A program made the position numbers and the translations under genes. DNA of 32,000 bases from Candidatus Saccharimonadota bacterium (GTDB lineage: Bacteria; Patescibacteriota; Saccharimonadia; Saccharimonadales; Saccharimonadaceae). Shown piece by piece: positions 3,756-32,000 of the stretch. Position 1 is the stretch's first letter; each line of letters begins with the position of its first letter. Where the stretch lies: assembly GCA_025349965.1 (NCBI GenBank), contig CP075337.1, positions 450,001-482,000 of the forward strand, given 5' to 3'. The notes below the pieces were generated by a model that did no database searches, was not told the DNA's origin, and saw only the letters and a program-made list of their open reading frames with translations.

Positions 3756-5027
3756 CTACTTGTGCGGTGGCACAAAAGTAAGTGCCTTACCGGTCGCAGT
3801 TCCACGTCCAGTTCGGCCAATACGGTGCACGTAATCTTCGTAGGTTGCTGGCTGATCAAAGTTAATCACGTGGCTCACGTTTGGAATATCAAGTCCGCGT
3901 GCTGCAACATCAGTTGCAACAAGTACCTTCACGTGGTCGTTCTTAAACGCACGGAGGGCACGTTGACGCTGTGATTGTGACTTATTACCGTGAATTGCCG
4001 CAGAAGGGATACCGCTGTTATCAAGGTGGTCAGAAAGACGCTGTACGCCAAACTTTGTTTCACCAAAGAGGAGCACCTTTTCAAACTCATCCTTACCAAG
4101 CATATCTTGAAGCTTTTCAAGTTTTTCTTCTTTTGTTGCTGCAATAACAATGTCCTGATCAACGCGTTCGCTGGTGTCAGCTGTACGTACAGAAATAACT
4201 TCAGGGTTGTTAAGGAACTCGTCCATAAGCTTCTGAATTTGTGGTGTAATTGTAGCACTAAAGAAAAGCGTCTGACGCTCATTTGGCGTAAGGCCAATAA
4301 TCTCGCGGATATCGTTTACGAATCCCATATCAAGCATGCGGTCAGCTTCGTCAAGAACAACAGTGTTAATCTGTCCAAGGTTGAGCTTCTTGCGCTTAAT
4401 AAGATCCATAACGCGTCCAGGCGTACCAATCACAACGTGTGGACGGCGAACGAGCTGCTTCATCTGGCGGTCAATATTCGCACCACCAACAAGAAGTGTC
4501 GAGAAGAGCTTCATCCCGTAAGAGAAATCACGAAATTGTTCGTCAATCTGCTGCGCAAGCTCGCGAGTTGGCGCAAGAATAAGCACAGAAGTTGGCACAG
4601 GATTACTATAAAGATTGTTAAGAATTGGCAAAAGGAATGCCGCAGTCTTACCAGTACCAGTGTTTGCAAGACCAAGTACGTCACGTCCTTCAAGGGTAAA
4701 TGGAATCGACTGATCCTGAATTGCACTTGGTGTCGTGTACTTCTTATGCGCAATGTTCTTGTGAAGCGCTGGGTGGAAAGGGAAGTCCGCAAAGGTATGC
4801 TTTGGCTCGTATGGAGTCTCTTCTCCTGAAATAGTTGCCTTATTTACAAACTTGCTTGGGTGGATGTATGCTCCGCGGTGATTTGACTTGCCACGTCGTG
4901 ACCCGCCACCATTGCTTGGGCGACGCTTGTGGAAGGGACGATTTGTCTGGTTTGAACGCTGACCGCCTTGTCCTCCGCGTGTTCCACGTGAGTTACCGCC
5001 GCGTCCTGAGCCGTGTTGATATGCCAT
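3756..5027 (-). CDS. DEAD-box ATP-dependent RNA helicase with N-terminal Arg/Gly-rich tail
   Basis: Motifs present are the Q motif (PSAIQDQSIP), motif I ANTGTGKTAAF, DEAD, SAT and HRIGRTGRG. The ATG at 5027 is preceded by AAAGAGG. The longer track ORF to 5162 lacks an RBS. Confidence 0.9.
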   Translation of the reverse strand: MAYQHGSGRGGNSRGTRGGQGGQRSNQTNRPFHKRRPSNGGGSRRGKSNHRGAYIHPSKFVNKATISGEETPYEPKHTFADFPFHPALHKNIAHKKYTTPSAIQDQSIPFTLEGRDVLGLANTGTGKTAAFLLPILNNLYSNPVPTSVLILAPTRELAQQIDEQFRDFSYGMKLFSTLLVGGANIDRQMKQLVRRPHVVIGTPGRVMDLIKRKKLNLGQINTVVLDEADRMLDMGFVNDIREIIGLTPNERQTLFFSATITPQIQKLMDEFLNNPEVISVRTADTSERVDQDIVIAATKEEKLEKLQDMLGKDEFEKVLLFGETKFGVQRLSDHLDNSGIPSAAIHGNKSQSQRQRALRAFKNDHVKVLVATDVAARGLDIPNVSHVINFDQPATYEDYVHRIGRTGRGTATGKALTFVPPHK

Positions 5028-5231
5028 AGGTAATAAACCTCTTTCTTTTTTTGAATTTTGACGCTTTAGCGCTTCTTGGCTGCGGCCACTGTATGCTGAT
5101 ATACAAAACAGGGGTGCGTCGTGTCTATGTCGCGCTGCAGACGAACAGCGAGAACTTCCCATTACCCCACCAAATACACGTTGTATATGCTTTTAGCTGA
5201 AAGAAAGTATCCATTCGGATGCAATAGGTCT

Positions 5232-5240
5232 ATTATAGCA
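5232..5240 (-). promoter_or_regulatory. Extended -10 promoter (TGCTATAAT) for the DEAD-box helicase
   Basis: The reverse complement of ATTATAGCA is TGCTATAAT. This implies a 5' UTR of about 190-200 nt before the ATG at 5027. Confidence 0.5.
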
Positions 5241-5275
5241 CACTTTTTGGTTTTACGCTAGTACCTTGGGCGTAG

Positions 5276-5281
5276 TACAAT
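5276..5281 (+). promoter_or_regulatory. -10 box TACAAT for the glycosyltransferase gene
   Basis: The sequence is TAGTACAAT, 9 nt upstream of the ATG at 5291. The same TAGTACAAT occurs upstream of the ATG at 17301. Confidence 0.45.
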
Positions 5282-5290
5282 AGAGAAAGT

Positions 5291-6367
5291 ATGAAATTAT
5301 TCTTTGATGCTCGCTGGACGCGCACTGATTATCATGACGGTATTAGCCGATATACCAGCGGGCTTCTTGAGGGCTTTTCACAGAGTAACCTTCCCGTAAC
5401 GGCTATTATCTGTGATAAAAAGCAACTTAAACTTTTGCCAGCCGGAATTGAGTATATTCTTGTTAATCATCCAGTGTCTATTAAAGAGCCCTTCATTGCC
5501 AAAAAGCTAAACAAACTCGGCGCAGATGTTGTTTTCAGCCCACTACAGGTAATGGGCTTCTGGGGACGACGCTATAAACTCATCCTTACCCTTCAAGATG
5601 TAATCTATTATCGGCACCCGAAGCCACCAACGAATCTTCCGTGGTATGTTCGTACAGTTTGGCGGCTATTTCATATGGCGCACTGGCCGCAACGACTTCT
5701 TCTCAATAGGGCTGATTATGTCACCACGGTAAGCAAGACATCAAAAAAATATATTGAAGCAATGCACCTAACTGACCGAGAAATTGGTGTTATCTATAAT
5801 GCTACCAGTATGGCAATCAAGGGTGAGTCCCAGGTCAGCCCCGGGCAAAATACCAAGAACATCCTCTATATGGGTTCATTCATGCCCTACAAGAACGCCG
5901 AAACCCTCATTAAGGCGATGGAATTTCTTCCAGATGAGTTTACACTCCAACTTTTGAGCCGTATTTCACCACAGCGAAAAGCAGAACTTGAGACGTTGAT
6001 ACCTACGGGCAAACGGGTTGTTTTTAGAAACGGCACCTCAGAAGAAGAGTACGCATCGCTCCTTGCAACGGCGCACTGCCTTGCAACTGCCTCGAAGGAG
6101 GAGGGCTTCGGACTCCCCATTACAGAGGCGCAAACCTATCAAACAGCCGTTGTTTGCTCTGACATGGATATTTTCCATGAAGTTGCCGGAAATGGCGCGC
6201 TCTTTTGCGACCCTGATAATCCAAAGGCATTTGCTGATGCAATTACATCACTTACTGACCCCGCGGTACGAACTGACCTTATAGCAAAAGGTGTGGCTCA
6301 TACCGCACAGTTCACTTGGGCAAACTCAGCCAAGGAAATTTGGAAGCTAGCAGAAGCGATACGTTAG
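5291..6367 (+). CDS. Glycosyltransferase, GT4 (GT-B fold) family
   Basis: The C-terminal EEGFGLPITEAQ motif is typical of GT1/GT4 retaining glycosyltransferases. Length is 358 aa. Confidence 0.85.
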   Translation: MKLFFDARWTRTDYHDGISRYTSGLLEGFSQSNLPVTAIICDKKQLKLLPAGIEYILVNHPVSIKEPFIAKKLNKLGADVVFSPLQVMGFWGRRYKLILTLQDVIYYRHPKPPTNLPWYVRTVWRLFHMAHWPQRLLLNRADYVTTVSKTSKKYIEAMHLTDREIGVIYNATSMAIKGESQVSPGQNTKNILYMGSFMPYKNAETLIKAMEFLPDEFTLQLLSRISPQRKAELETLIPTGKRVVFRNGTSEEEYASLLATAHCLATASKEEGFGLPITEAQTYQTAVVCSDMDIFHEVAGNGALFCDPDNPKAFADAITSLTDPAVRTDLIAKGVAHTAQFTWANSAKEIWKLAEAIR

Positions 6368-7032
6368 CGTACTTTTTCGAGGGGCACCTTCATAGCCCAC
6401 GCGCATACATACTGTGCTACAAAAAAGAATGCAGTCGGCACTGCCAAGACGGCCGCTGCAAGCAGCGCCATATCAAGCGAGAGTACTTGCTCGCCAATAA
6501 ATTGAGACGCCCACGCAAGCCCAAGTGGCACAGCCACCATTAGTACCTTAAGAACAATAATAATACGTCCACTTATTTTCAATGTATTTTTCTTGGTTTC
6601 AGGAAGGTGTTGCGCCTTTAATACCAGCGGGGCTGCCTGCTTTGCAACCACCGTAGCGGCCTTACTTCCGGCACGAGATACGAGGCGAGGAAAAACAATC
6701 AAAGCGTAAATAGTGACGCCGATCATAGCCAGCGCAAAGAGTGCGAGAAGTACAGTGACAAACGGCGAAGGCGCTTCAAATGAAGGAACCGCTGGAGCAG
6801 GCGTAGGTGCTGGCGTATTTGGTGTTGCAGTAGGCTGCATTGGCACCAGAAAGTACGTGTATATCCAGACGAAGTAGAGCGCAAACGCCATCAGCCATTG
6901 AATGACCGCGAAGAAATAGCCCGTTGCACCAAAACCGCTCACGAACCGCTCACGTCGCGAGCGTGGTGGAGACTTTCTCGTATTGTTTCGCACGGTCCTC
7001 ATTACGGTTATAATACCACATTCTTTGTCCAT
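6364..7032 (-). CDS. Hypothetical membrane protein with a Pro/Thr/Ala-rich loop
   Basis: The ORF is long with about 4-5 hydrophobic helices. The ATG at 7032 is preceded by GAGCAGGA, and the track start at 7053 is a TTG. Its stop overlaps the GT4 stop by 4 nt (TTAG). Confidence 0.6.
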   Translation of the reverse strand: MDKECGIITVMRTVRNNTRKSPPRSRRERFVSGFGATGYFFAVIQWLMAFALYFVWIYTYFLVPMQPTATPNTPAPTPAPAVPSFEAPSPFVTVLLALFALAMIGVTIYALIVFPRLVSRAGSKAATVVAKQAAPLVLKAQHLPETKKNTLKISGRIIIVLKVLMVAVPLGLAWASQFIGEQVLSLDMALLAAAVLAVPTAFFFVAQYVCAWAMKVPLEKVR

Positions 7033-7078
7033 GCGATCCTGCTCAATAGTCAATATGTTTGCATTTTAAAAAAAATCT

Positions 7079-7086
7079 TGTATAAT
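7079..7086 (+). promoter_or_regulatory. -10 promoter (TG+TATAAT) upstream of the surface protein gene
   Basis: A perfect TATAAT at 7081-7086 is directly preceded by TG, in an AT-rich spacer. Confidence 0.45.
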
Positions 7087-7157
7087 AATACTGCACAACA
7101 GAATGAAGCTGATTTCACCTATTGTGTTGTTCATTTCAACTAAGGATTGGGGACCAA

Positions 7158-9083
7158 TTGCGCAAGCAGAATGGGGTACTCGCGATAGTTCTCGCGGGTA
7201 TGCTCGCAGTCGGCTATCCGACGGTTGCATTTGCCGATGATGGCAGTGCGCCGACGGAAGTCGCCACCGTGAATTCTGAAGAGAGTTCAAGTCTCGTCGA
7301 AGAGACCTCCGCGGCTACGGAAGCTCCGCAGCCGTCCACAGAAGCTCCCGCCGAGGAGCCGGTCAGCGAACCTCAGCCCGAGGTCGCCACTGAAGTACCG
7401 GCACCGCCAGCAGAGCCCGTCGTCGTGGACGAACCTGTCGCAGCTCCCGTGGTTTCTTCGGAACCCGCGGAAGAAGCGACTACGCCCGAAGTTGCACCGG
7501 AGGAGCCGTCCAGCCCACCGGTAGCAGCACCCACCGCAACGCAGATGAAGGCCTCCTCGCCGGCTCCGGCCGCAAAGAAGCCCGACACTGCCAAGAAGGT
7601 ATGGGTCTGTAAGTTCGTTGGCACCCCTGGTGTAAACGAGCGCCTCAAGAGCGGGAAGAATCCCATCTCGGTGTCGGTCAACTCGATTGGCCACAACACC
7701 TGGAATGGTTCCGTTCCCGGTTGGTTCTCCGACGCGCACGATCGCTCATTTGTGATCGCGTACGACACTGGTGGTTCAGGCCCCAGTGCGGCGGACTGTG
7801 AAGGCGTGATCGTCAAGAAGGACGCCTCGGCATCCGTCTCGGTCACGCCGGCCACGTGCGATGCTCCGGCAAAGCTCGTCTACGGCGAGGCTGTCAACGC
7901 TACGCTCAGCGGAACTCCGAACGGTACTGCCGGTCCGGGGAACTACAACGTGACGGCGACCAGTACCTCTGGCCACGTCTTCGCCGATGGAACCTCCAGT
8001 CAGCTGTTCTCCGGAACGCTGGATGGAAAGATTCCGACACAGAACACCAACCCGAATGGCCCGTGCTACGAGCCGCCCGTGTTGGTGAAGGACGCCTCGG
8101 CATCTGTCTCGGTTACCCCGGCCACGTGCGACGCTCCGGCGATGCTCGTGTACGGTGATGTTGCACATGCCTCATTCAGCGGTACCGCCAATGGCACCAC
8201 TGGTCCGGGAAGTTACGACGTCACGGCAACCAGTGATACGGGTCACGCCTTCAGTGATGGAGAATTGACCAAATCGTTCACTGGAACACTGGACGGCAAG
8301 CTCCCGTCGCAAAGTGAGAATCCGGAAGGTTCGTGCTACGAACCGCCCGCTCCCACGCTGGATGCTTCGGCGTCCGTTTCGGTGACACCCGCTACCTGCG
8401 ATGCTCCGGCAACGTTGGTCTACGGCGACATCGAGAATGCCACGTTCAGTGGAACCCCGGACGGTACTACCGGCCCGGGAGACTACAGCGTGGTGGCGAC
8501 GAGTGACGAGGGTCACCTCTTTGCAGATGAGTCATCCACCAAGTCGTTCTCCGGAACACTGGCGGATAAACTCCCCACGCAGAGTGAGGATCCCGAGGGT
8601 TCGTGCTACGAGCCCCCGGTGGTTCTGAAGGATGCCGAGGCTTCGGTCACGGTTACCTTGGCGACCTGTGATGTCCCGGCAAAACTCGTCTACGGCGAGG
8701 CTGTCAACGCTACGTTCGACGGCACCGCTGATGGCACGAACGGCCCTGGCGACTACACCGTGGTTGCTACGGCCAACGAGGGCCATCTCTTCGCCGACGA
8801 AAGTGCGACGCAGACGTTCTCCGGAACGTTGAGCGGCAAGCTTCCGCAGCAGAGCGTAGACCCGGCGAAGCCGTGCTTCAAGGCGCTGGTTCCGCCGTCG
8901 AACCCGCCCATTCCGGGTAACCCCATCCCGCCGACACCCCCGGCCACACCGGTGAGCACTCCTCATGGGCAGCTCGCCGTGACCGGTACCGGTTCAGCAG
9001 ATTACAGCCTGCTGATCGCGCTCGGCCTTGTGACACTCAGCGGGCTGGCCTTCAGCCTCCGTCGTCGCAACAAGGTGTCGTAG
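7158..9083 (+). CDS. Cell-wall-anchored (LAxTG sortase signal) surface protein with a Pro-rich stalk and four 90-aa tandem domains
   Basis: A TTG at 7158 follows AAGGATTGGGG and gives the signal peptide RKQNGVLAIVLAGMLAVGYPTVAFA/DD. The alternative ATG at 7122 gives a poor N-terminus. The C-terminus is LAVTG, then a hydrophobic helix, then RRRNKVS. Composition is GC-rich and GC3-rich, unlike the neighbouring genes. Confidence 0.85.
   Translation: MRKQNGVLAIVLAGMLAVGYPTVAFADDGSAPTEVATVNSEESSSLVEETSAATEAPQPSTEAPAEEPVSEPQPEVATEVPAPPAEPVVVDEPVAAPVVSSEPAEEATTPEVAPEEPSSPPVAAPTATQMKASSPAPAAKKPDTAKKVWVCKFVGTPGVNERLKSGKNPISVSVNSIGHNTWNGSVPGWFSDAHDRSFVIAYDTGGSGPSAADCEGVIVKKDASASVSVTPATCDAPAKLVYGEAVNATLSGTPNGTAGPGNYNVTATSTSGHVFADGTSSQLFSGTLDGKIPTQNTNPNGPCYEPPVLVKDASASVSVTPATCDAPAMLVYGDVAHASFSGTANGTTGPGSYDVTATSDTGHAFSDGELTKSFTGTLDGKLPSQSENPEGSCYEPPAPTLDASASVSVTPATCDAPATLVYGDIENATFSGTPDGTTGPGDYSVVATSDEGHLFADESSTKSFSGTLADKLPTQSEDPEGSCYEPPVVLKDAEASVTVTLATCDVPAKLVYGEAVNATFDGTADGTNGPGDYTVVATANEGHLFADESATQTFSGTLSGKLPQQSVDPAKPCFKALVPPSNPPIPGNPIPPTPPATPVSTPHGQLAVTGTGSADYSLLIALGLVTLSGLAFSLRRRNKVS
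7821..8900 (+). repeat. Four in-phase 270-bp (90-aa) tandem coding repeats
   Basis: Units start at 7821, 8091, 8361 and 8631 (GACGCCTCGG / GATGCTTCGG / GATGCCGAGG). Each encodes D-A-S/E-A-S-V-S/T-V-T-P/L-A-T-C-D-A/V-P-A...G-x-C-Y/F. Confidence 0.9.
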
Positions 9084-9097
9084 CAATACGGCATAAC

Positions 9098-9150
9098 AGC
9101 CTCCTCGGGCATACATTCACTTGTATGTCCGAGGAGGCTCTTTTCATTTT
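9098..9150 (+). terminator. Rho-independent terminator of the surface protein gene
   Basis: An 18-bp stem pairs AGCCTCCTCGGGCATACA (9098-9115) with TGTATGTCCGAGGAGGCT (9122-9139), including one G-U pair. It is followed by CTTTTCATTTT. Confidence 0.8.
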
Positions 9151-9168
9151 GACCATAAATAATAAAGA

Positions 9169-9177
9169 TGTTATAAT
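9169..9177 (+). promoter_or_regulatory. Extended -10 promoter TGTTATAAT
   Basis: TGTTATAAT lies about 40 nt upstream of the ATG at 9220, which has a GGGGAGG RBS. Confidence 0.5.
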
Positions 9178-9219
9178 AATAAAATCCTATTCCACACAAC
9201 AACCGAGGGGAGGTGTAGG

Positions 9220-9843
9220 ATGTTCCTTAGTACTCGTATGTTTTTGTCACAACACAAGGGGATGTTCATCTTCGTCCTTGTACTGTTTAGCCTTGTCCTT
9301 GGCATGAACACGTGGCTTTTTGGTTCGATGCTTGGCTTTCTCATAAGCGGAAGCTTCGACACAAAAGAAATTCCCGTCGTCGTTTGGTTCATGGGAGTCT
9401 TTGCACTCGCTAGTATCTATAGTGTCGGCGCGTATGTCGTGTGGATTGTGAAGTACCGCTACTTCTTCAAGCTCCATAAGCTACTAAAGGCACGGATGGC
9501 GGGCGCAACACTGATCACCGTGAAGCTCAAGGGGAGTGAGTACGAGATTGCCTTTGAAAAAGGCGAGTATCGGATTGCTCAACTGAACATAGAGACGCAC
9601 AGCACCGAAGCGCTTGTTGTACTTGGTAGCGACTACTTCGACGAGACAGACAAGCAGGCAAGCTACATTTCCGGCTCGCCAGCAGCAGTCCGCTATCTTG
9701 GTCCTATGCGAAATCTCAGTGATGCCAAGACCTTCAAGTATTGGTTTGTAACGCTGTACGCAGCTCGGACAGTTGATCGTTGTAATCTGCCGAATCCCAT
9801 TACACGTCGCAACGAGACGAAAGAAAAAGGAGCGCCCTCATAG
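9220..9843 (+). CDS. Hypothetical membrane protein
   Basis: A strong RBS (GGGGAGG) sits 7 nt upstream. There are two N-terminal TM helices and then a soluble domain. I recognise no family. Confidence 0.65.
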   Translation: MFLSTRMFLSQHKGMFIFVLVLFSLVLGMNTWLFGSMLGFLISGSFDTKEIPVVVWFMGVFALASIYSVGAYVVWIVKYRYFFKLHKLLKARMAGATLITVKLKGSEYEIAFEKGEYRIAQLNIETHSTEALVVLGSDYFDETDKQASYISGSPAAVRYLGPMRNLSDAKTFKYWFVTLYAARTVDRCNLPNPITRRNETKEKGAPS

Positions 9844-16118: not shown

Positions 16119-16193
16119 TGGCTGGGGATGAGGGATTCGAACCCCCGAATGCCGGGACCAGAACCCGGTGCCTTACCACTTGGCGAATCCCCA
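16119..16193 (-). tRNA. tRNA-Gln (anticodon CUG), CCA encoded
   Basis: The reverse complement reads TGGGGATTCGCCAAGTGGTAAGGCACCGGGTTCTGGTCCCGGCATTCGGGGGTTCGAATCCCTCATCCCCAGCCA. It has a 7-bp acceptor stem, an anticodon loop TTCTGGT, and a GGTTCGAATCC T-arm. It closely resembles E. coli tRNA-Gln. Confidence 0.95.
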
Positions 16194-16286
16194 GTAGTGT
16201 AAGCGATTACAGTAGGTAATTATACAGCTTTACAGCATAATACGCAAGATAGGCTGGCGGCCGGTTGGCAGGTGCGCGCACTTCGG

Positions 16287-16294
16287 TGTACAAT
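16287..16294 (+). promoter_or_regulatory. -10 promoter TG+TACAAT, 6 nt from the ATG (leaderless-type)
   Basis: TGTACAAT is at 16287-16294 and the ATG is at 16301. Confidence 0.5.
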
Positions 16295-16300
16295 ACATTT

Positions 16301-16798
16301 ATGAAACAAAGCGTAAGCGAAATGCTCAATCGAAAACAAAAAGGATTCACCCTTATTGAACTTGTTATCGTTGTCGCTGTCATTATTATTCTTACCTCTA
16401 TCGCGGCGGCAGGTATGACAATTTATTTGAAAGATGCGCGGGATAATGAACGTGCAGGGAAAATGACGATCCTCGTTGAGGCGCTTGAAAGATATTATGA
16501 TCAAAACGGCGAGTATCCAAGTTGTGCAGTCCTATCGGACAGTAATGTCTCAAGTGCAGCTCAGGCACTTGGAGGGATTGATCTACAAACCTTTGTTGCA
16601 CCATCAGCCGAGGAAGGCACAACTAATTCAATTAACTGTAGTTCAGACCAGCCAACAGGCCAACCGGATACGTTTAATTACTCATCAACACCTGCCGTAG
16701 CATCCAACACAGCAATGCGTAATTACACTTTACGATACTGGAGTGAAGGTAATAATAGCGTCGAGACCGTTATGGGACGACGCGGCCGAGAGCCATAA
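16301..16798 (+). CDS. Type IV pilin-like protein (prepilin N-terminal cleavage/methylation domain)
   Basis: The class III signal is MKQSVSEMLNRKQKG/FTLIELVIVVAVIIIL, with G-1, F+1 and E+5. The track start at 16265 is a non-ATG codon. Confidence 0.85.
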   Translation: MKQSVSEMLNRKQKGFTLIELVIVVAVIIILTSIAAAGMTIYLKDARDNERAGKMTILVEALERYYDQNGEYPSCAVLSDSNVSSAAQALGGIDLQTFVAPSAEEGTTNSINCSSDQPTGQPDTFNYSSTPAVASNTAMRNYTLRYWSEGNNSVETVMGRRGREP

Positions 16799-17342: not shown

Positions 17343-20300
17343 ATGAGCTTTGATACCCGCTACAACCGCCTAAACGATGCACAAAAACAAGCTGTCACTA
17401 CTATTGACGGACCTGTCATGATCGTAGCTGGGCCGGGGACGGGAAAAACCGAACTTTTGAGCGTCCGCATTGCCAATATTCTTCAAAAAACCGACACACT
17501 TCCAGAGAATATTCTTTGTCTTACTTTTACTGAAAGCGGGCAGGCAGCCATGCGTGAACGCTTGGTTGGTATTATCGGCAAAGATGCCTACAAAGTAGCG
17601 ATTCACACCTTCCACAGTTTCGGGAGTGAAATCATTAGTCAGAACCGAGAATACTTCTATAATAACGCGCAGTTTGAGCCGGCAGATGAGCTAAAGCAAT
17701 ATGAAATTATCCGCGGAATCTTCGAGGAACTACCCTTTGATAGTCCACTAGCCAGTATGCAGAATGGCGAATACACCCATCTTCGTGATGCGCTCAAAAC
17801 AATTTCCGAGCTCAAGCGAAACAGCGCCCTCACAAGTGACGAGCTTCGTGCCATAATTGAGCAAAATGAAGCATCGCTTGATTTTATCGAACCACTCCTA
17901 CAGCCCATCCTTGAGGCGCGCGTCGGCAAGCAAACCGCCTCGCAACTTGCAGAACTGCTCGTACCAATTACAGGGCATACTCAGGGCCTTGAGCCGCTCT
18001 ACGGTATTATTCCATTCGCACAGGTTTTTCTCAATTCGCTCGCCAATGTTATCCAAGAAGCCGAGACGATCCATCCAACGAAACCTATCTCCGCGTGGAA
18101 AACGCATTGGCTTGAGCGCGATGCAAATAAGCGACTCGTATTCAAGGATCGTAAACGCCTTACAAAGCTCAAAGAGGTTGTTCACATTTATTTCCAATAT
18201 CTTACGCGCATGGAGAAAGCCGCTCTTTACGACTTCGACGATATGATCATGCAAGTAGTGCACGCCGTCGAAACACAACCAGATCTTCGCTACAATCTTC
18301 AAGAAAAATATTTATACATTATGGTTGACGAGTTTCAGGACACCAACCTCGCCCAACTTCGTATTCTTCATAATCTCACTGACAATCCTGTCAACGAAGG
18401 TGCCCCGAATATCCTGGTTGTAGGGGATGACGACCAGGCTATCTACAGCTTCCAAGGTGCCGACATCAGTAATATTCTCACATTCTCAGACACTTACCCA
18501 ACACGGTCGCTCGTCGTACTAACAGAAAACTATCGGTCAGGGGCGGCGATACTGACATCATCCCGCGAAGTCATTACGCAAGGAGGCGATCGTCTTGAAA
18601 CACGCATCCCCGAACTCAATAAACAACTCTCTGCCAACCAAAAAGACGCGGGCTCAATCTCGCTCTGGGAAGCTTCGTCGGTTCAAGCTGAACGACAAGC
18701 AATTATTACCGACATCGGCAAACGTATTGCCGAGGGGGCGCTTGCGTCTAGTATTGCCGTTCTGGCTCGCCATCACGCGGACATAAAAAGCCTCCTTCCG
18801 TACTTCGCGCACGCAGGTATTCCAGTACGATACGAGCACCAAGAGAATGCACTGGACGCAGAACCTATACTTGCATTGACATCAGTCGCAGAGCTTGTTG
18901 TTGCGCTTTCAAATGGAGACCATGACACCGTGGAGGCGCTTCTGCCAACAATCCTCGCGCATCCAGCTTGGAATATACCCGCAACCTCTCTCTGGAAGCT
19001 GAGCCTTACTGCCTATAAGAATCATCAAAATTGGACAGAAATCATGGCGACAACACCAGAATTCGTACCTGTTCTAGAATGGCTTCTTGCGCGTGCTCAA
19101 GAGTCGGCCACTTTTACCCTTGAAGCGAGCATCGACCGCCTCATTGGTGTGCCCGAAGAAGGTGAGTGGGCTCCTTATTACGACTATTTCTTTTCAAGCG
19201 AAAAACTTACCGCTCACCCAAGTCGCTATCTCGAGCACCTTAATGCACTTCGTGTCATTCGCACTCGACTTCGTGAGTATGGCGGAGCTGAAAATCCAAC
19301 GCTAAAGGAATTCGTATCCTTCGTCGCACTCCATCGACAACTGGACATCCGCATCGCTGTCACACAAGACACACTCACGGAAGATGGCGACGCTGTTCAT
19401 CTCATGACTGCACACAAATCAAAGGGGCTTGAGTTTGAAACTGTCTACGTATTCAATGGAGTAGACTCTATTTGGGGACAGAGCGTCCGCTCAAGAAGCA
19501 GCTCCATTGCATATCCGGCCAATCTTCCCCTTACTGCCAATAGTAATACAGCGGATGAACGCATGCGCCTTTATTACGTAGCGATGACCCGTGCAAAGAG
19601 CACCCTCATTCTTACATATAGCACCCTCAATGACACTGACAAGGCTACACTCAAAGCTGATTTTCTTGTTGCACTCGATACACCCATTGACCACATCGAT
19701 CCAAAAGAACAAGGCTCTGTCATGGAAATAAACGAGATTGCCGATTTAGCGTGGCACGGTCAGCGACGGCTTTCCGAACCCACTACCGATTTAGAGGTAC
19801 TTCTTCAGCCAACACTGGCGAATTTCAAGCTAAGCGCCACTTCTCTTAATAATTTCCTCGATGTCACAAGAGGTGGCCCGCGCACCTTCCTTTTGAATAA
19901 TCTCCTCCGCTTTCCAAGCGCTAAAAGTGCTGCTGCAACATACGGAACAGCCGTTCACACCACCATGCAAAAAGCGCACACGCACATTCGAGCAGTGGGC
20001 GAACAGAAGCCACTTGAAGATATCTTGCATGATTTTGAAGTTTCACTAAGAAACAGTCGCCTCTCTAAGAAAGATTTTGAATTTTACCTTGCACAGGGAA
20101 GGGCGCACCTCACCACCTTCATCGAGTCTGGAATTCTTCCTATGACAACAACCCAGAAAGCTGAAGTTAACTTTGCCTCTCAAGGAGTCCACTGTGACGA
20201 TGCGCACATAACAGGGGCACTTGACCTTATCGATATCAACGAAGAGGAAAAAACAATCACTGTTACAGACTATAAGACCGGTAGCCCCGCAAACGCATGG

Positions 20301-20630
20301 GGTAGGGGCACAGAGTATACCAAGGTAAAACTCCATAAGTATCGACAACAGCTCTTGTTTTACAAGTTACTCATAGAGAATTCTGGCCTTTACACGGGAT
20401 ATACGGTAACACATGGTCAGCTGGCTTTTATACAGCCAGATAAGTCGGGCGCGCCCGTAGTCCTCAGTATGGAGTTCTCGGATAAGGAAGAGTTAGAACG
20501 AACACGGAAGCTCATCAATGCAACGTGGAAAAGGATTACCTCGCTTGACCTGCCGGATACTACAGCATACCCCGAGACACTTGAGGGTATTATCGCTTTT
20601 GAAGACACCCTTATTGACGAAGTAGTATAA
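17343..20630 (+). CDS. UvrD/PcrA/AddA-type SF1 helicase fused to a C-terminal PD-(D/E)xK (RecB/Cas4-like) nuclease domain
   Basis: The helicase motifs are Walker A AGPGTGKT, DEFQDTN, VGDDDQAIYSFQGA, ENYRS and VHLMTAHKSKGLEF..YVAMTRAK. The C-terminal nuclease signature is GALDLID...VTDYKTG...KYRQQLLFYKLL. Confidence 0.85.
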   Translation: MSFDTRYNRLNDAQKQAVTTIDGPVMIVAGPGTGKTELLSVRIANILQKTDTLPENILCLTFTESGQAAMRERLVGIIGKDAYKVAIHTFHSFGSEIISQNREYFYNNAQFEPADELKQYEIIRGIFEELPFDSPLASMQNGEYTHLRDALKTISELKRNSALTSDELRAIIEQNEASLDFIEPLLQPILEARVGKQTASQLAELLVPITGHTQGLEPLYGIIPFAQVFLNSLANVIQEAETIHPTKPISAWKTHWLERDANKRLVFKDRKRLTKLKEVVHIYFQYLTRMEKAALYDFDDMIMQVVHAVETQPDLRYNLQEKYLYIMVDEFQDTNLAQLRILHNLTDNPVNEGAPNILVVGDDDQAIYSFQGADISNILTFSDTYPTRSLVVLTENYRSGAAILTSSREVITQGGDRLETRIPELNKQLSANQKDAGSISLWEASSVQAERQAIITDIGKRIAEGALASSIAVLARHHADIKSLLPYFAHAGIPVRYEHQENALDAEPILALTSVAELVVALSNGDHDTVEALLPTILAHPAWNIPATSLWKLSLTAYKNHQNWTEIMATTPEFVPVLEWLLARAQESATFTLEASIDRLIGVPEEGEWAPYYDYFFSSEKLTAHPSRYLEHLNALRVIRTRLREYGGAENPTLKEFVSFVALHRQLDIRIAVTQDTLTEDGDAVHLMTAHKSKGLEFETVYVFNGVDSIWGQSVRSRSSSIAYPANLPLTANSNTADERMRLYYVAMTRAKSTLILTYSTLNDTDKATLKADFLVALDTPIDHIDPKEQGSVMEINEIADLAWHGQRRLSEPTTDLEVLLQPTLANFKLSATSLNNFLDVTRGGPRTFLLNNLLRFPSAKSAAATYGTAVHTTMQKAHTHIRAVGEQKPLEDILHDFEVSLRNSRLSKKDFEFYLAQGRAHLTTFIESGILPMTTTQKAEVNFASQGVHCDDAHITGALDLIDINEEEKTITVTDYKTGSPANAWGRGTEYTKVKLHKYRQQLLFYKLLIENSGLYTGYTVTHGQLAFIQPDKSGAPVVLSMEFSDKEELERTRKLINATWKRITSLDLPDTTAYPETLEGIIAFEDTLIDEVV

Positions 20631-29802: not shown

Positions 29803-32000
29803 CTAGAAGTAGCGACGTGGGCCGACGAGGAGGTAGGAGGGGAGGTAGTTTTGAGAGGGGACGTTGAGTGTGGCAACGGGGGAGGATTTGTTGGTCGTTG
29901 TGCCGTCGCCAAGCTGGCCGGAGGTGCCAGCTCCCCAGCAGTAGGCCTTGTTGTCGGAGGCAAGGGCGCAGGTGTGGCTACCACCGGCTGTGAGTTGGCC
30001 GATGGCGACACCGTCTGGAATGGCACCTTGGAGAACAGCGACAGGGGAGGACTTGTTGGTCATTGTGCCGTCGCCAAGCTGGCTGGAAGTGCCAAGACCC
30101 CAACAATAGGCTTTATTGTCGGAGGCAAGGGCGCAGGTGTGGCTACCACCGGCTGTGAGTTGGCGGATGGTAGTGCCGGCCGGAATGGCTCCCTGGAGAA
30201 CAGCGACAGGGGAGGACTTACTGACCGTAGTGCCGTCGCCAAGCTGGCTGGAGGTGCCAGCTCCCCAGCAGTAGGCCTTGTTGTCGGAGGCAAGGGCGCA
30301 GGTGTGGCTAGCACCAGGCGCAAGCTGGCGGATGGTAGTGCCGGCTGGAATGGCCCCCTGGAGAACAGCAACAGGGGAGGATTTGTTGGTCGTTGTGCCG
30401 TCGCCAAGCTGGCCGGAGGTGCCAGCCCCCCAGCAGTAGGCCTTGTTGTCGGAGGCAAGGGCGCAGGTGTGGTTGGTACCCGTTGCAAGCTGGCGGATGG
30501 TAGTGCCAGCCGGAATGGCACCCTGGAGAACAGCAACAGGGGAGGATTTACTGACCGTTGTGCCGTCGCCAAGCTGGCTGGAGGTGCCAAGACCCCAGCA
30601 GTAGGCCTTGTTGTCGGAGGCAAGGGCGCAGGTGTGAAGATTACCGTTAATAACCTGCCGGATAGTAACACCGGCTGGAATGGCCCCCTGGAGAACGGCG
30701 ACAGGGGAGGATTTGTTGGCCGCTGTGCCGTCGCCAAGCTGGCTGTAGGTACCATTTCCCCAGCAGTAGGCCTTGTTGTCGGAGGCAAGGGCGCAGCTGT
30801 GGCTACCACCGGCCGTGAGTTGGCGGATGGTGGCACCGTCTGGAATGGCACCCTGGAGAACAGCGACAGGGGAGGATTTGTTGGCCGTTATGTCAGCTCC
30901 CCAGCAGTAGGCCTTGTTGTCGGAGGCGAGGGTGCAGGTGTGGCTATTACCGGCTGTGAGTTGGCGGATGGTAGTGCCAGCCGGAATGGCACCCTGGAGA
31001 ACAGCAACAGGGGAGGATTTACTGACCGTTGTGCCGTCACCGAGTTGACCATTTGTGTTTGTACCCCAGCAATAGGCTTTGCTGTCGGAGGCGAGGGTAC
31101 AGGTGTAGTTAGAGCCGATGGTAACTTGCCGAAAGGATACACTAGTCAAAACTTCAGCCGGATAGAATTTACTAGTAGTTGTACCGTCGCCAAGCTGGCC
31201 AACACTGTTATACCCCCAGCAATAGGCTTTATTGTTAGCTGTAAGGGCGCAAGTATGATTGATGCCGGGTATAATGCGACGAATCGTAACTCCGGCTGGG
31301 ATTTCACCCTGAGAGACGGCGACGGGAGAGAATTTGTCATCTGCGGTACCGTTACCAAGTCGACCGTTTGCATTCTGCCCCCAGCAATAAGCTTTGTTAT
31401 CGGAAGCGAGGGTACAGATGTAGCCAACGCCAGCAGTAAGCTGCCGAATGGTGGCACCGGCTGGGATTTCACCCTGAGAGACGGCGACGGGAGAGAATTT
31501 ATTGACAGTCGTGCCGTCGCCGAGCTGACCTGATGTATTCTGCCCCCAGCAATACGCCCTGTTGTCGGAGGCGAGGGCGCAGGTATTATGCCCCCCTGCT
31601 GTGATTTGCCGAATCGCAACTCCGGACGGGATAGCCCCCTGGAAGACAGCAACAGGAGTAACTCTATTGGTACTAATACTACTACCGCCGGCCTGTCCGT
31701 AGGCGTTATACCCCCAGCAGTAGACTTTATTATCGGAGGTAAGTGCACAGGTGTGGCTAGAGCCGGCTACAAGTTGCCGAATCGTAACTCCGGCTGGGAT
31801 TTCACCCTGAGAGACGGCGACAGGGGAACTCTTTTGAATAGTCGTACCGTCACCTAGCTGACCGTAATTGCTATACCCCCAGCAATAGATTTTATTATCT
31901 GAAGCGAGGACACAAGTATAGTTAACCCCGGTTACAAGTTGCCGAATCGTAACTCCGGCTGGGATTTCACCCTGAGAGACGGCGACAGGGGAACTCTTTT
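29803..32000 (-). CDS. RCC1-repeat (beta-propeller blade) protein, N-terminus beyond the window edge
   Basis: I checked every triplet from 31150 to 32000 by hand. The frame has no stop and no ATG/GTG/TTG, and it keeps encoding blades (..SPVAVSQGEIPAGVTIRQL..HTCAL.SDNK.YCWG.N..GQLGDGT..). The track start at 31149 (TTG) is therefore an artefact. At least 13 blades are present. Confidence 0.85.
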   Translation of the reverse strand, partial: KSSPVAVSQGEIPAGVTIRQLVTGVNYTCVLASDNKIYCWGYSNYGQLGDGTTIQKSSPVAVSQGEIPAGVTIRQLVAGSSHTCALTSDNKVYCWGYNAYGQAGGSSISTNRVTPVAVFQGAIPSGVAIRQITAGGHNTCALASDNRAYCWGQNTSGQLGDGTTVNKFSPVAVSQGEIPAGATIRQLTAGVGYICTLASDNKAYCWGQNANGRLGNGTADDKFSPVAVSQGEIPAGVTIRRIIPGINHTCALTANNKAYCWGYNSVGQLGDGTTTSKFYPAEVLTSVSFRQVTIGSNYTCTLASDSKAYCWGTNTNGQLGDGTTVSKSSPVAVLQGAIPAGTTIRQLTAGNSHTCTLASDNKAYCWGADITANKSSPVAVLQGAIPDGATIRQLTAGGSHSCALASDNKAYCWGNGTYSQLGDGTAANKSSPVAVLQGAIPAGVTIRQVINGNLHTCALASDNKAYCWGLGTSSQLGDGTTVSKSSPVAVLQGAIPAGTTIRQLATGTNHTCALASDNKAYCWGAGTSGQLGDGTTTNKSSPVAVLQGAIPAGTTIRQLAPGASHTCALASDNKAYCWGAGTSSQLGDGTTVSKSSPVAVLQGAIPAGTTIRQLTAGGSHTCALASDNKAYCWGLGTSSQLGDGTMTNKSSPVAVLQGAIPDGVAIGQLTAGGSHTCALASDNKAYCWGAGTSGQLGDGTTTNKSSPVATLNVPSQNYLPSYLLVGPRRYF
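29870..32000 (-). repeat. Tandem 165-bp (55-aa) coding repeats
   Basis: The period was measured from TAGGC anchors at 29942, 30107 and 30272, which are 165 nt apart. Eight near-identical units span about 29870-31100 and five or more diverged units lie upstream. Confidence 0.9.

Follow-up and report, generated by a model that had tools for sequence, protein, structure and literature searches.

The question raised by this locus is how a single gene with the codon usage of high-GC Actinobacteria came to lie in the genome of a saccharibacterium. The window, i.e. the whole stretch of DNA that was analysed, comprises 32,000 nucleotides (nt; positions 450,001 to 482,000 of contig CP075337.1, assembly GCA_025349965.1, Candidatus Saccharimonadota bacterium). 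Open reading frames (ORFs) were called by simple rules, which listed the gene at 7122-9083 (+); its start is most likely the TTG at 7158, giving a coding sequence (CDS) of 7158-9083 (+) for a surface protein of 641 amino acids (aa) with a sortase-type sorting signal. The original prediction, made from the letters of the sequence, had described this gene as a sharp island of guanine-plus-cytosine (GC) content and codon usage, likely to have been acquired from a high-GC Gram-positive donor. The island is indeed there. As to its origin, we see about an even chance that the gene was acquired long ago from a high-GC actinobacterium, before the lineage of this organism (TM7i) separated from that of a distant relative (locus L005), and that it has since been partly ameliorated and is now a resident, putatively wall-anchored host-contact protein exchanged between strains.

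The GC content of the surface gene is 0.622, compared to a window mean of 0.494, and drops to 0.308 in the upstream spacer (7054-7157) and to 0.404 in the downstream spacer (9084-9219), so that the promoter and the downstream spacer are as AT-rich as had been supposed. Among all 1926-nt segments of the 32 kb, the GC peak starts at 7151 and lies approximately 3.8 standard deviations over the mean. Both edges are abrupt: in 60-nt steps, GC rises from 0.32-0.42 (7081-7111) to 0.53-0.62 (7141-7201) at the 5' edge and falls from 0.58 (9051) to 0.33 (9111) at the 3' edge. The island thus coincides with the gene from the signal peptide to the stop codon, as predicted, and the hand counts behind that prediction were exact (0.700 at 7321-7380, 0.433 at 5291-5350, TATAAT at 7081). 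GC is raised in each segment of the gene, whose architecture is described below: 0.59 in the signal peptide, 0.62 in the linker, 0.685 in the N-terminal conserved domain (N-domain), 0.61-0.77 in the repeats and 0.73 in the anchor.

A trivial cause would be the amino acid composition of the protein, which is rich in Ala (12.5%), Pro (10.9%), Gly (8.7%) and Thr. Composition does raise the expected GC to 0.539, and of the overall GC excess of 0.14 roughly 0.06 can be ascribed to it. The remainder lies in silent positions: the GC content of third codon positions (GC3) is 0.68 in the surface gene versus 0.37-0.57 in the 24 other ORFs, and with the protein fixed and native codon frequencies applied, a GC3 of 0.435 is expected and 0.688 observed (z=13). 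At fourfold degenerate sites the GC content (GC4) is 0.696, compared to 0.417 in native genes. A second trivial cause, a chimera of assembly or binning, is contradicted by an independent contig of a metagenome-assembled genome (MAG), L001. It has the same gene, with both spacers 100% identical, so that the junctions are the same in two assemblies and the island is no assembly artefact; furthermore, other genomes have similar islands far from the ends of contigs of 0.35-0.9 Mb. An artefact or a purely amino-acid-driven composition is therefore hardly credible.

The codon choices of the surface gene are actinobacterial in kind and contrary to those of native highly expressed genes. The share of CCG is 0.60 versus 0.19 in native genes, that of CCA 0.03 versus 0.41 and that of CTT 0.06 versus 0.47; CTG, CTC, TCG and ACG are enriched and TCA is depleted, as in Microbacterium-like genes. 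The GC3 of the gene is roughly midway to the 0.935 expected under Microbacterium-like codon usage, and the mean log-likelihood ratio of actinobacterial over native codon usage is -0.20, compared to -0.9 to -1.7 for native genes. Translational selection on a highly expressed gene could be excluded, because these choices are the reverse of what is seen in the strongly expressed native atp operon, whose genes favour CCA, CTT, TCA and GGT, all avoided by the surface gene. Some of the codon arguments advanced earlier have to be corrected. Lys is indeed encoded almost only by AAG (21/24, 88%), but the alleged native preference for AAA does not exist, as AAG makes up 56% overall and 79% in the atp operon; similarly, Asp and Glu do not rely on GAC and GAG, the shares of which in the surface gene (50-51% and 55%) are native-like.

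The organism fits such an origin. Two window proteins, AtpA and a luciferase-like oxidoreductase, exactly match those of Candidatus Saccharibacteria bacterium TM7i (UTX51061.1 and UTX51047.1), which was grown in co-culture with Leucobacter aridicollis J1 (PMC9894109); this actinobacterium belongs to the Microbacteriaceae and has a high GC content. It had thus been guessed correctly that the genome is Saccharibacteria-like and its host actinobacterial. The text of the paper describing TM7i makes no mention of sortases, LPXTG proteins or gene transfer (PMC9894109).

The sister strain L001 shares 97.8% nt identity with the window over 9.2 kb and has the surface gene at the same locus (protein P0001, 99% aa identity). 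The best of the other whole-protein matches are 44-55% identical over part of the query, and the best ones in actinobacterial context reach 45-51% identity over 39-52% of the query. Among the latter, P0002 (L004) is encoded in actinobacterial DNA with a flank GC of 0.73, and P0006 (L002), with a flank GC of 0.67, ends in LAVTG and adjoins a SpaA pilus operon. P0006, the N-domain of which is 69-72% and the repeat 56% identical to those of the window gene, is the closest actinobacterial homologue sampled, and the ribosomal proteins of L002 place it with Microbacterium, i.e. in the family of the host. The likeness of the VWVCKFVGTPGVNE segment to N-domains of actinobacterial surface proteins, which had also been proposed, was borne out by more than 100 loci of actinobacterial composition or title. 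Two further relatives lie in Saccharibacteria-like DNA. P0005 (L005) has the LAVTG motif and a gene GC3 of 0.55 in flanks with a GC of 0.46; the ORF upstream of it is 39% aa-identical to the 229-aa neighbour of the window gene, and because these upstream genes are homologous, we regard the L005 locus as syntenic with the window. P0008 (L006) forms no GC island and is directly followed by a sortase gene; the luciferase-like and F420-oxidoreductase genes of L006 are 77% and 68% identical to those of the window.

That L001 and the distant relative L005 both have the gene at this locus shows that the acquisition is not recent. A recent, direct transfer from L. aridicollis or another contemporary high-GC donor had some appeal, given a high-GC host of the Microbacteriaceae and a nearest actinobacterial homologue that is Microbacterium-like and carries LAVTG. 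We nevertheless consider it very improbable: GC3 is only halfway to actinobacterial values, silent sites between the window gene and its syntenic counterpart in L005 are near saturation, the identities to matches in actinobacterial context are low and of partial length, and no Leucobacter locus is found among the best 80 of 119 matches in species representatives of GTDB.

An old acquisition accommodates these data better. In neighbour-joining (NJ) trees with bootstrap, built on short alignments of 70 and 163 columns, the window gene and L005 form a clade with a bootstrap of 94-98%. At fourfold sites they have the same base in 37.6% of cases, compared to 25.6% at saturation. Under a one-parameter decay model, which is a crude sketch, simple decay from a GC4 of ~0.9 predicts ~0.6, and 0.64 and 0.52 are observed for this pair. 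In a related cluster with a GC3 of ~0.88, silent changes polarised by parsimony, itself a crude procedure, include 31 from G/C to A/T (S-to-W) versus 6 in the opposite direction (W-to-S; p=4e-5), i.e. a net loss of GC. Plausible routes of transfer are provided by DNA-uptake genes and by phages common with Actinobacteria (PMC9894109; PMC10746230). The coding sequence would thus descend from a gene of a high-GC actinobacterium, i.e. of the host phylum; it would have entered Saccharibacteria before the TM7i/L005 split, landing beside the gene of the 229-aa membrane protein, and its silent sites would have decayed approximately halfway from an actinobacterial GC3 of ~0.93 to the native ~0.44, while the gene would keep being exchanged between strains by homologous recombination.

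The family as a whole gives this picture another dimension. We scanned GTDB species representatives and JGI metagenomes with the N-domain and recovered ~160 loci, those from metagenomes being classed by flank GC rather than by taxonomy. At 104 loci of actinobacterial composition or title, the gene differs from its flanks by only -0.06 to +0.03 in GC. In low-GC contexts of Saccharimonadia type (flanks mostly 0.46-0.55; n=48 after dereplication), 24 copies and the window gene are islands with a GC3 of 0.55-0.93, and 23 match their genome. The islands are ORF-exact, with a mean GC of 0.44 in the 150 nt upstream and of 0.65-0.67 inside. At L008, the island copy separates two genes that are direct neighbours in the window, and L008, L024, L021, L013 and L014 carry island copies in differing slots of a conserved backbone. 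In the L007 genome, a native-GC paralogue, which has a sortase, coexists with an island paralogue of GC3 0.83; therefore, high GC is not intrinsic to the N-domain family. These recurrent ORF-exact islands in the dialect of the host are the most interesting outcome of the analysis, and across Saccharimonadia they appear to be undescribed in the searchable literature.

Two observations were made on the contigs themselves. The L007 paralogues lie at L007:17-1249 and L007:9168-10886 (-) on a contig labelled 'Dongiaceae bacterium', which nevertheless has Saccharibacteria-like genes: its ksgA is 60% identical to that of the window and its sortase 58% identical to that of L006, which suggests a mis-binned contig. 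In L086, a 479-kb contig of Saccharibacteria composition (flank GC 0.48), a carotenoid-type cluster (L086:9042-13928) with genes for a polyprenyl synthase, a phytoene synthase, a desaturase, a lycopene cyclase and a UbiA-family protein directly follows the island gene and its sortase.

Several results weigh against the transfer from an actinobacterium. Apart from the clade of the window gene and L005, the trees are weak: its grouping with L002 has a bootstrap of 42% or is missing, all deeper nodes are weak, most of its neighbours are Saccharibacteria copies, the 163-column tree places the clade beside native-GC Saccharibacteria copies (38%), and no NJ tree nests the window gene in an actinobacterial clade with support. 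The closest N-domain belongs to a Saccharibacteria copy with a GC3 barely above that of its flanks (L088, 85% identity), compared to at most 73% for actinobacterial sequences, and the repeats of L007_b (70%), L005 (65%) and L006 (59%) are closer to those of the window protein than those of L002 (56%); these nearest relatives comprise Saccharibacteria copies of island as well as native-GC type. No close donor of the window gene was found among 5.8 billion proteins. Across the family, island copies are no more similar to actinobacterial sequences than native-GC copies are (76.6% versus 79.0% identity; one-sided p=0.93) and mostly cluster with each other, and at all island loci the GC steps coincide with the ORF ends, with no foreign flank. 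At the borders of the window gene we detected no insertion sequence (IS) element, no integrase and no direct repeats beyond promoter-like matches containing TATAAT; the closest transfer RNA (tRNA) gene is at 16119, and the 32-kb window encodes no sortase detectable by tblastn (E >0.7) or Pfam scans. The codon signal is also uneven: Pro, Leu, Gln, Tyr and Phe are shifted, whereas Asp, Glu, Gly, Ala and His are native-like. The horizontal acquisition predicted for this gene was hence sustained as far as its codon usage is concerned, which is actinobacterial and not driven by amino acids, and not as far as a supported nesting or a close donor is concerned. We infer an actinobacterial origin of the coding sequence with moderate confidence.

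The copy of L020, the freshest-looking island (GC3 0.935), also tells against a simple transfer. It has no relative of more than 62% identity among the 5.8 billion proteins, and its best relatives are other Saccharibacteria islands (49-62%), so that no donor could be named for it. The closest two, L168 and L169, are islands as well, and their loci are collinear with that of L020 and hence orthologous. Flanking orthologues of L020, L168 and L169 share 72-86% protein identity, retain 0.08-0.22 of fourfold sites and have a GC4 of 0.33-0.55, yet the island orthologues have a GC3 of 0.855-0.935, compared to ~0.70 at most under neutral decay. Where two of these genes share G or C at a fourfold site, the base is the same in 60% of cases versus 53% expected, which is near random, and G-to-C or C-to-G swaps number 16 against 19 changes between G/C and A/T in island genes, versus 0/115 and 20/198 in native genes. 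We conclude that the GC-rich silent sites of the L020 lineage are either maintained or repeatedly replaced. Since GC3 is 0.86-0.94 despite near-saturated silent sites, high GC3 is therefore no simple clock of transfer.

These findings open a different explanation for the window gene: it may have resided in Saccharibacteria for long, its GC-rich codons being actively maintained by silent-site selection, GC-biased fixation or repeated allele replacement, so that the island would be a stable property of this class of genes and any transfer too old to explain its composition. We regard this explanation as less likely than an old acquisition, but as a serious rival to it. It would account for the islands in approximately 24-25 of the 48 dereplicated low-GC copies, for their clustering with each other rather than with actinobacterial sequences, for the GC3 and the near-random bases of the L020 lineage, and for the lack of a donor even for its most GC-rich copy; moreover, the implied equilibrium GC3 is 0.6-0.7 in island genes, compared to 0.51 in flanking genes of the same genomes. 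However, the window gene and L005 have a lower and unequal GC3 (0.69 and 0.55), which fits decay, and the GC3 ~0.88 cluster is significantly losing GC. Ordinary codon selection is not the cause, because the codons run counter to those favoured in native translation, and native-GC and island paralogues coexist in one genome (L007). No mechanism is known for such maintenance, and the evidence from parsimony polarisation and the decay model is crude. Extended to the whole class, it is a tentative proposal that Saccharimonadia keep a class of sortase-type surface genes at host-like codon usage far longer than neutral amelioration would allow, by a fixation bias that favours GC in these genes specifically or by continual replacement of alleles from their hosts.

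Exchange between strains is visible in the window gene itself. Window and L001 diverge by 1.74% at the silent sites of the surface gene and by 5.96% at those of six flanking genes (Fisher p=3.6e-6). No difference at all occurs over 1344 bp (6830-8173), a tract that begins within the upstream gene, includes the promoter and covers approximately the first 1 kb of the CDS. The alignment is mosaic, and the region 5001-6000 is also low in differences; in this mosaic, the 6830-8173 tract is probably the result of a recent homologous recombination. Two further strain sets showed the same deficit, i.e. the silent divergence of the island gene is 2.5-4 times below that of the flanks in 3/3 comparisons, and in these two sets the flanking genes are at compositional equilibrium (implied GC3 0.51).

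This deficit, the difference-free tract over the 5' part of the gene, and the presence of several family members in some genomes (L007, a tandem pair in L095, and L090/L091 on one contig) would also be expected if the gene were a hotspot of exchange between strains or paralogues, in which biased repair raised GC without any foreign origin. Such local GC-biased gene conversion is, however, unlikely to have produced the island. The GC step is ORF-exact, while the recombination tract reaches into the 0.31-GC spacer and part of the neighbour of normal GC; biased conversion, also as a means of active maintenance, should not halt at the ORF edges. Other low-difference regions, such as 5001-6000, are not elevated in GC, the same genomes contain native-GC paralogues, and among the four internal repeats, which are old (61-71% nt identity), there is no sign of concerted evolution. 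In L095, and likewise in L093 and L098, two island genes follow each other in tandem (L095:2813-4972 and L095:5230-7545) with a GC3 of 0.79 and 0.74; their silent-site divergence is approximately four times less than that of their native neighbours.

The product of the gene is a Sec-exported, multi-domain surface protein composed of a linker, a small beta N-domain, four repeats, a stalk and an anchor. A Sec-type signal peptide, (M)RKQNGVLAIVLAGMLAVGYPTVAFA (7158-7238, +), comprises an n-region with RK, a hydrophobic core and AFA, and its cleavage is predicted before DD; both the signal peptide and the cleavage site were called by eye. It is followed by an acidic low-complexity linker of 116 aa (aa 28-143; 7239-7586, +), which is rich in Pro, Glu, Ala, Thr and Val and has comparable counterparts in P0005, P0006 and P0014. 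The N-domain ('VCKYVGTPG'; aa 144-216; 7587-7805, +) reads KKVWVCKFVGTPGVNERLKSGKNPISV...WFSDAHDRSF...C, and Cys151 and Cys214 are invariant columns of its alignment. Four tandem repeats of ~92 aa (aa 217-310, 311-402, 403-494 and 495-585; 7806-8912, +) are each bracketed by a Cys pair (TPATC ... CYEPP). Then come a Pro-rich stalk, PGNPIPPTPPATPVSTPH (8913-8966, +), the LAVTG sorting motif (aa 606-610; 8973-8987, +), and a hydrophobic membrane segment, YSLLIALGLVTLSGLAFSL (aa 616-634), with the basic tail RRRNKVS (aa 635-641; both at 9003-9080, +).

The N-domain and the repeats matched no Pfam or NCBIfam model, and among 1.84 billion representatives the N-domain family makes up 795 clusters at 50% identity. 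Compared with each other, the repeats share 57-72% identity in aa and 61-71% in nt, and Tandem Repeats Finder (TRF) detected no DNA tandem array in the surface gene; homogenisation of the repeats was therefore rejected as a source of its GC. AlphaFold2 predicted an all-beta structure for the N-domain with two repeats (predicted local distance difference test (pLDDT) 92.3). The top matches of this three-domain model in a Foldseek search of the PDB were generic immunoglobulin (Ig)/fibronectin type III (FN3) ectodomains, which were not significant (E >=0.12), and the N-domain alone (pLDDT 82.9) had no fold match in the PDB. On the basis of the model, the repeats appear to be of beta-sandwich type. 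Because it ends in a sorting signal of sortase type, the protein is predicted to be attached covalently to the peptidoglycan of the epibiont, and the N-domain and repeats would face outward. It is most likely a wall-anchored adhesin or host-contact protein.

The sorting signal is LAVTG rather than LPxTG, as predicted, and the same motif occurs in P0005 and P0006. The TIGR01167 LPXTG_anchor profile recognized it marginally, with 16.1 bits (cutoff 15.9), whereas Pfam Gram_pos_anchor (PF00746) gave 14.8 bits, below its cutoff of 20. LAXTG, with Ala at P3, is the signal of actinobacterial class E sortases, e.g. in Streptomyces chaplins anchored by SrtE1 and SrtE2 (PMC5148588). This part of the link proposed between the window protein and class E sortases is documented; as to the other part, no class E sortase could be shown, and the sortases found next to Saccharibacteria family members are not of class E. 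A sortase gene lies directly downstream of a family member in L006, L007, L014, L020, L086-L088, L090 and L169. The Saccharibacteria sortases adjoining family members scored 24-30 bits with the class E model (NF033747), the cutoff of which is 160, and were weakly closest to class F; class E identity was rejected. The sortase adjoining the L002 copy belongs to class C (267 bits). In a sequence search of the PDB, the L006-type sortase was weakly nearest to class A and C enzymes, and the L014 type had no match. Nor does the motif mark islands: LAxTG is also present in native-GC Saccharibacteria copies, and its link with island status is not significant (Fisher p=0.31).

The sorting signal has an unusual form in the island copies L020:9914-11017, L168:627-1697 and L169:6001-7095, which end exactly in ...PA[VYI]A[HN]TG[RH]* with no hydrophobic tail and are followed by a divergent sortase-like gene. 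In L033, L034, L050, L056, L061 and L084 (Nocardioidaceae or Marmoricola), a DEAD-box helicase gene (-) ~2.6 kb upstream, the N-domain protein, a class-F-like sortase and UvrD-like helicases ~6 kb downstream are found in an order that resembles the window, with its DEAD helicase (3756-5162, -), surface gene and AddA-like helicase (17343-20630).

The surface gene is monocistronic, with its own AT-rich promoter and terminator. The promoter is sigma-70-like (7058-7086, +), with TTTGCA and TATAAT (7081-7086) separated by a 17-nt spacer (10/12 matches), and a Shine-Dalgarno-like AAGGAT (7142-7147, +) could be read ~11 nt 5' of the TTG. Starting 15 nt past the stop codon, an inverted repeat forms a strong intrinsic-terminator-like hairpin (9098-9139; 18-bp stem, 6-nt loop) that is followed by a T-run (together 9098-9149, +). 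Upstream, the divergently transcribed gene of the 229-aa membrane protein (6364-7053, -) is the neighbour that defines the synteny with L005; its product has no Pfam match, and beyond L005 its wider conservation is weak (23% identity, E ~5e-4). Downstream, an ORF for a 207-aa membrane protein (9220-9843, +) has a mildly raised GC3 of 0.57 (z=3.1) and no Pfam match. Similar extended -10 elements occur at 7070-7090 (TGTATAATAATA) and 9161-9181 (TGTTATAATAATA), one in the surface gene's promoter and one in that of the 207-aa gene; this common element is probably a promoter consensus and not an insertion scar. Farther downstream, tRNA-Gln(CTG) (16119-16193, -) adjoins a type IV pilin-like gene (16265-16798, +) with an N_methyl motif and a GC3 of 0.37, and the island copy of L008 sits just downstream of a homologue of this pilin-like gene.

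A second GC block of the window is formed by an RCC1-repeat ORF that extends from 29803 to beyond 32000 (-), past the right edge of the window. It encodes no fewer than 765 aa, with 14 or more CWG/QLGDG repeats, so that the 448-aa ORF that had been listed is only its 3' part. This gene has a GC of 0.61, a GC3 of 0.667, a GC skew of +0.2 and a bias for codons ending in C or T, without GTG, CTG or TCG. The part that is rich in GC (29879-31106) consists of a 165-bp DNA tandem array with 81-85% identity, which was recently amplified, and the gene's syntenic orthologues beside the atp operon in L170 are not GC-rich, their GC3 being equal to that of the flanks. With this other codon bias, the tandem array and the orthologues at flank GC3, the gene was rejected as proof that repeat-rich secreted proteins are generally GC-rich here. 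Another RCC1-repeat gene (L171:5001-6518; CAYMBV010000002.1, from the genome that also holds L008) lies inside a ribosomal-protein operon, between rpsH (S8) and rplF (L6), and its GC3 of 0.48 is native-like.

Saccharibacteria are obligate epibionts of Actinobacteria, and their host recognition and attachment are little understood beyond type IV pili. The surface gene is a concrete candidate for a host-contact protein in one of the few cultured pairs of an organism belonging to the candidate phyla radiation (CPR) and its host, TM7i and L. aridicollis J1, and it belongs to an uncharacterised domain family common with the host phylum. Islands that arose by transfer would be a record of surface genes passing from host to epibiont. 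Islands that are maintained would instead reveal, in highly reduced genomes, an unexplained force acting on the silent sites of particular genes, and would warn against the use of GC3 as a gene-transfer clock. Should maintenance or replacement prove true, the ORF-exact islands would mark a persistent pool of surface genes common to host and epibiont, of which the TM7i LAVTG protein would be an experimentally tractable member, since TM7i is cultured together with its host.

Horizontally acquired genes are said, in the concept of Lawrence and Ochman, to be recognised by atypical GC or codon usage and to undergo amelioration. The window gene resembles such ameliorating genes in its sharp compositional island, its donor-like codons and an intermediate GC3 that fits partial decay. 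It differs from them in that its island is exact to a single ORF and has neither a mobile-element signature nor a phylogenetic nesting in the donor phylum, and in that islands recur in about half of the family copies class-wide, one lineage outlasting neutral amelioration. With class E substrates the window protein shares Ala at P3 (LAVTG), and its nearest actinobacterial homologue has the same motif; unlike those substrates, its relatives stand beside sortases that are weakly closest to class F or, in L002, of class C. Sortase-anchored adhesins similar to the microbial surface components recognizing adhesive matrix molecules (MSCRAMM) have the same layout of a signal peptide, tandem beta-sandwich repeats, a Pro-rich stalk, L-x-x-T-G, a hydrophobic segment and a basic tail. 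In contrast to theirs, the N-domain and repeats of the window protein lack a known family or a significant fold match, and its organism is a CPR epibiont and not a classical Gram-positive bacterium. Finally, type IV pili are host-contact structures of TM7i (PMC9894109), and Mycosynbacter has Pam pili, the pilins of which are stated to be exclusive to CPR (bioRxiv 10.64898/2026.03.03.709456). Like these pili, the window protein, which is predicted to be extracellular, beta-rich and Ig-like, is a plausible attachment factor of an obligate epibiont of Actinobacteria. However, it belongs neither to the pilins nor to the donor-strand-exchange subunits and is predicted to be anchored to the wall by a sortase signal, and, unlike the CPR-exclusive Pam pilins, its family is common to Saccharibacteria and Actinomycetota.

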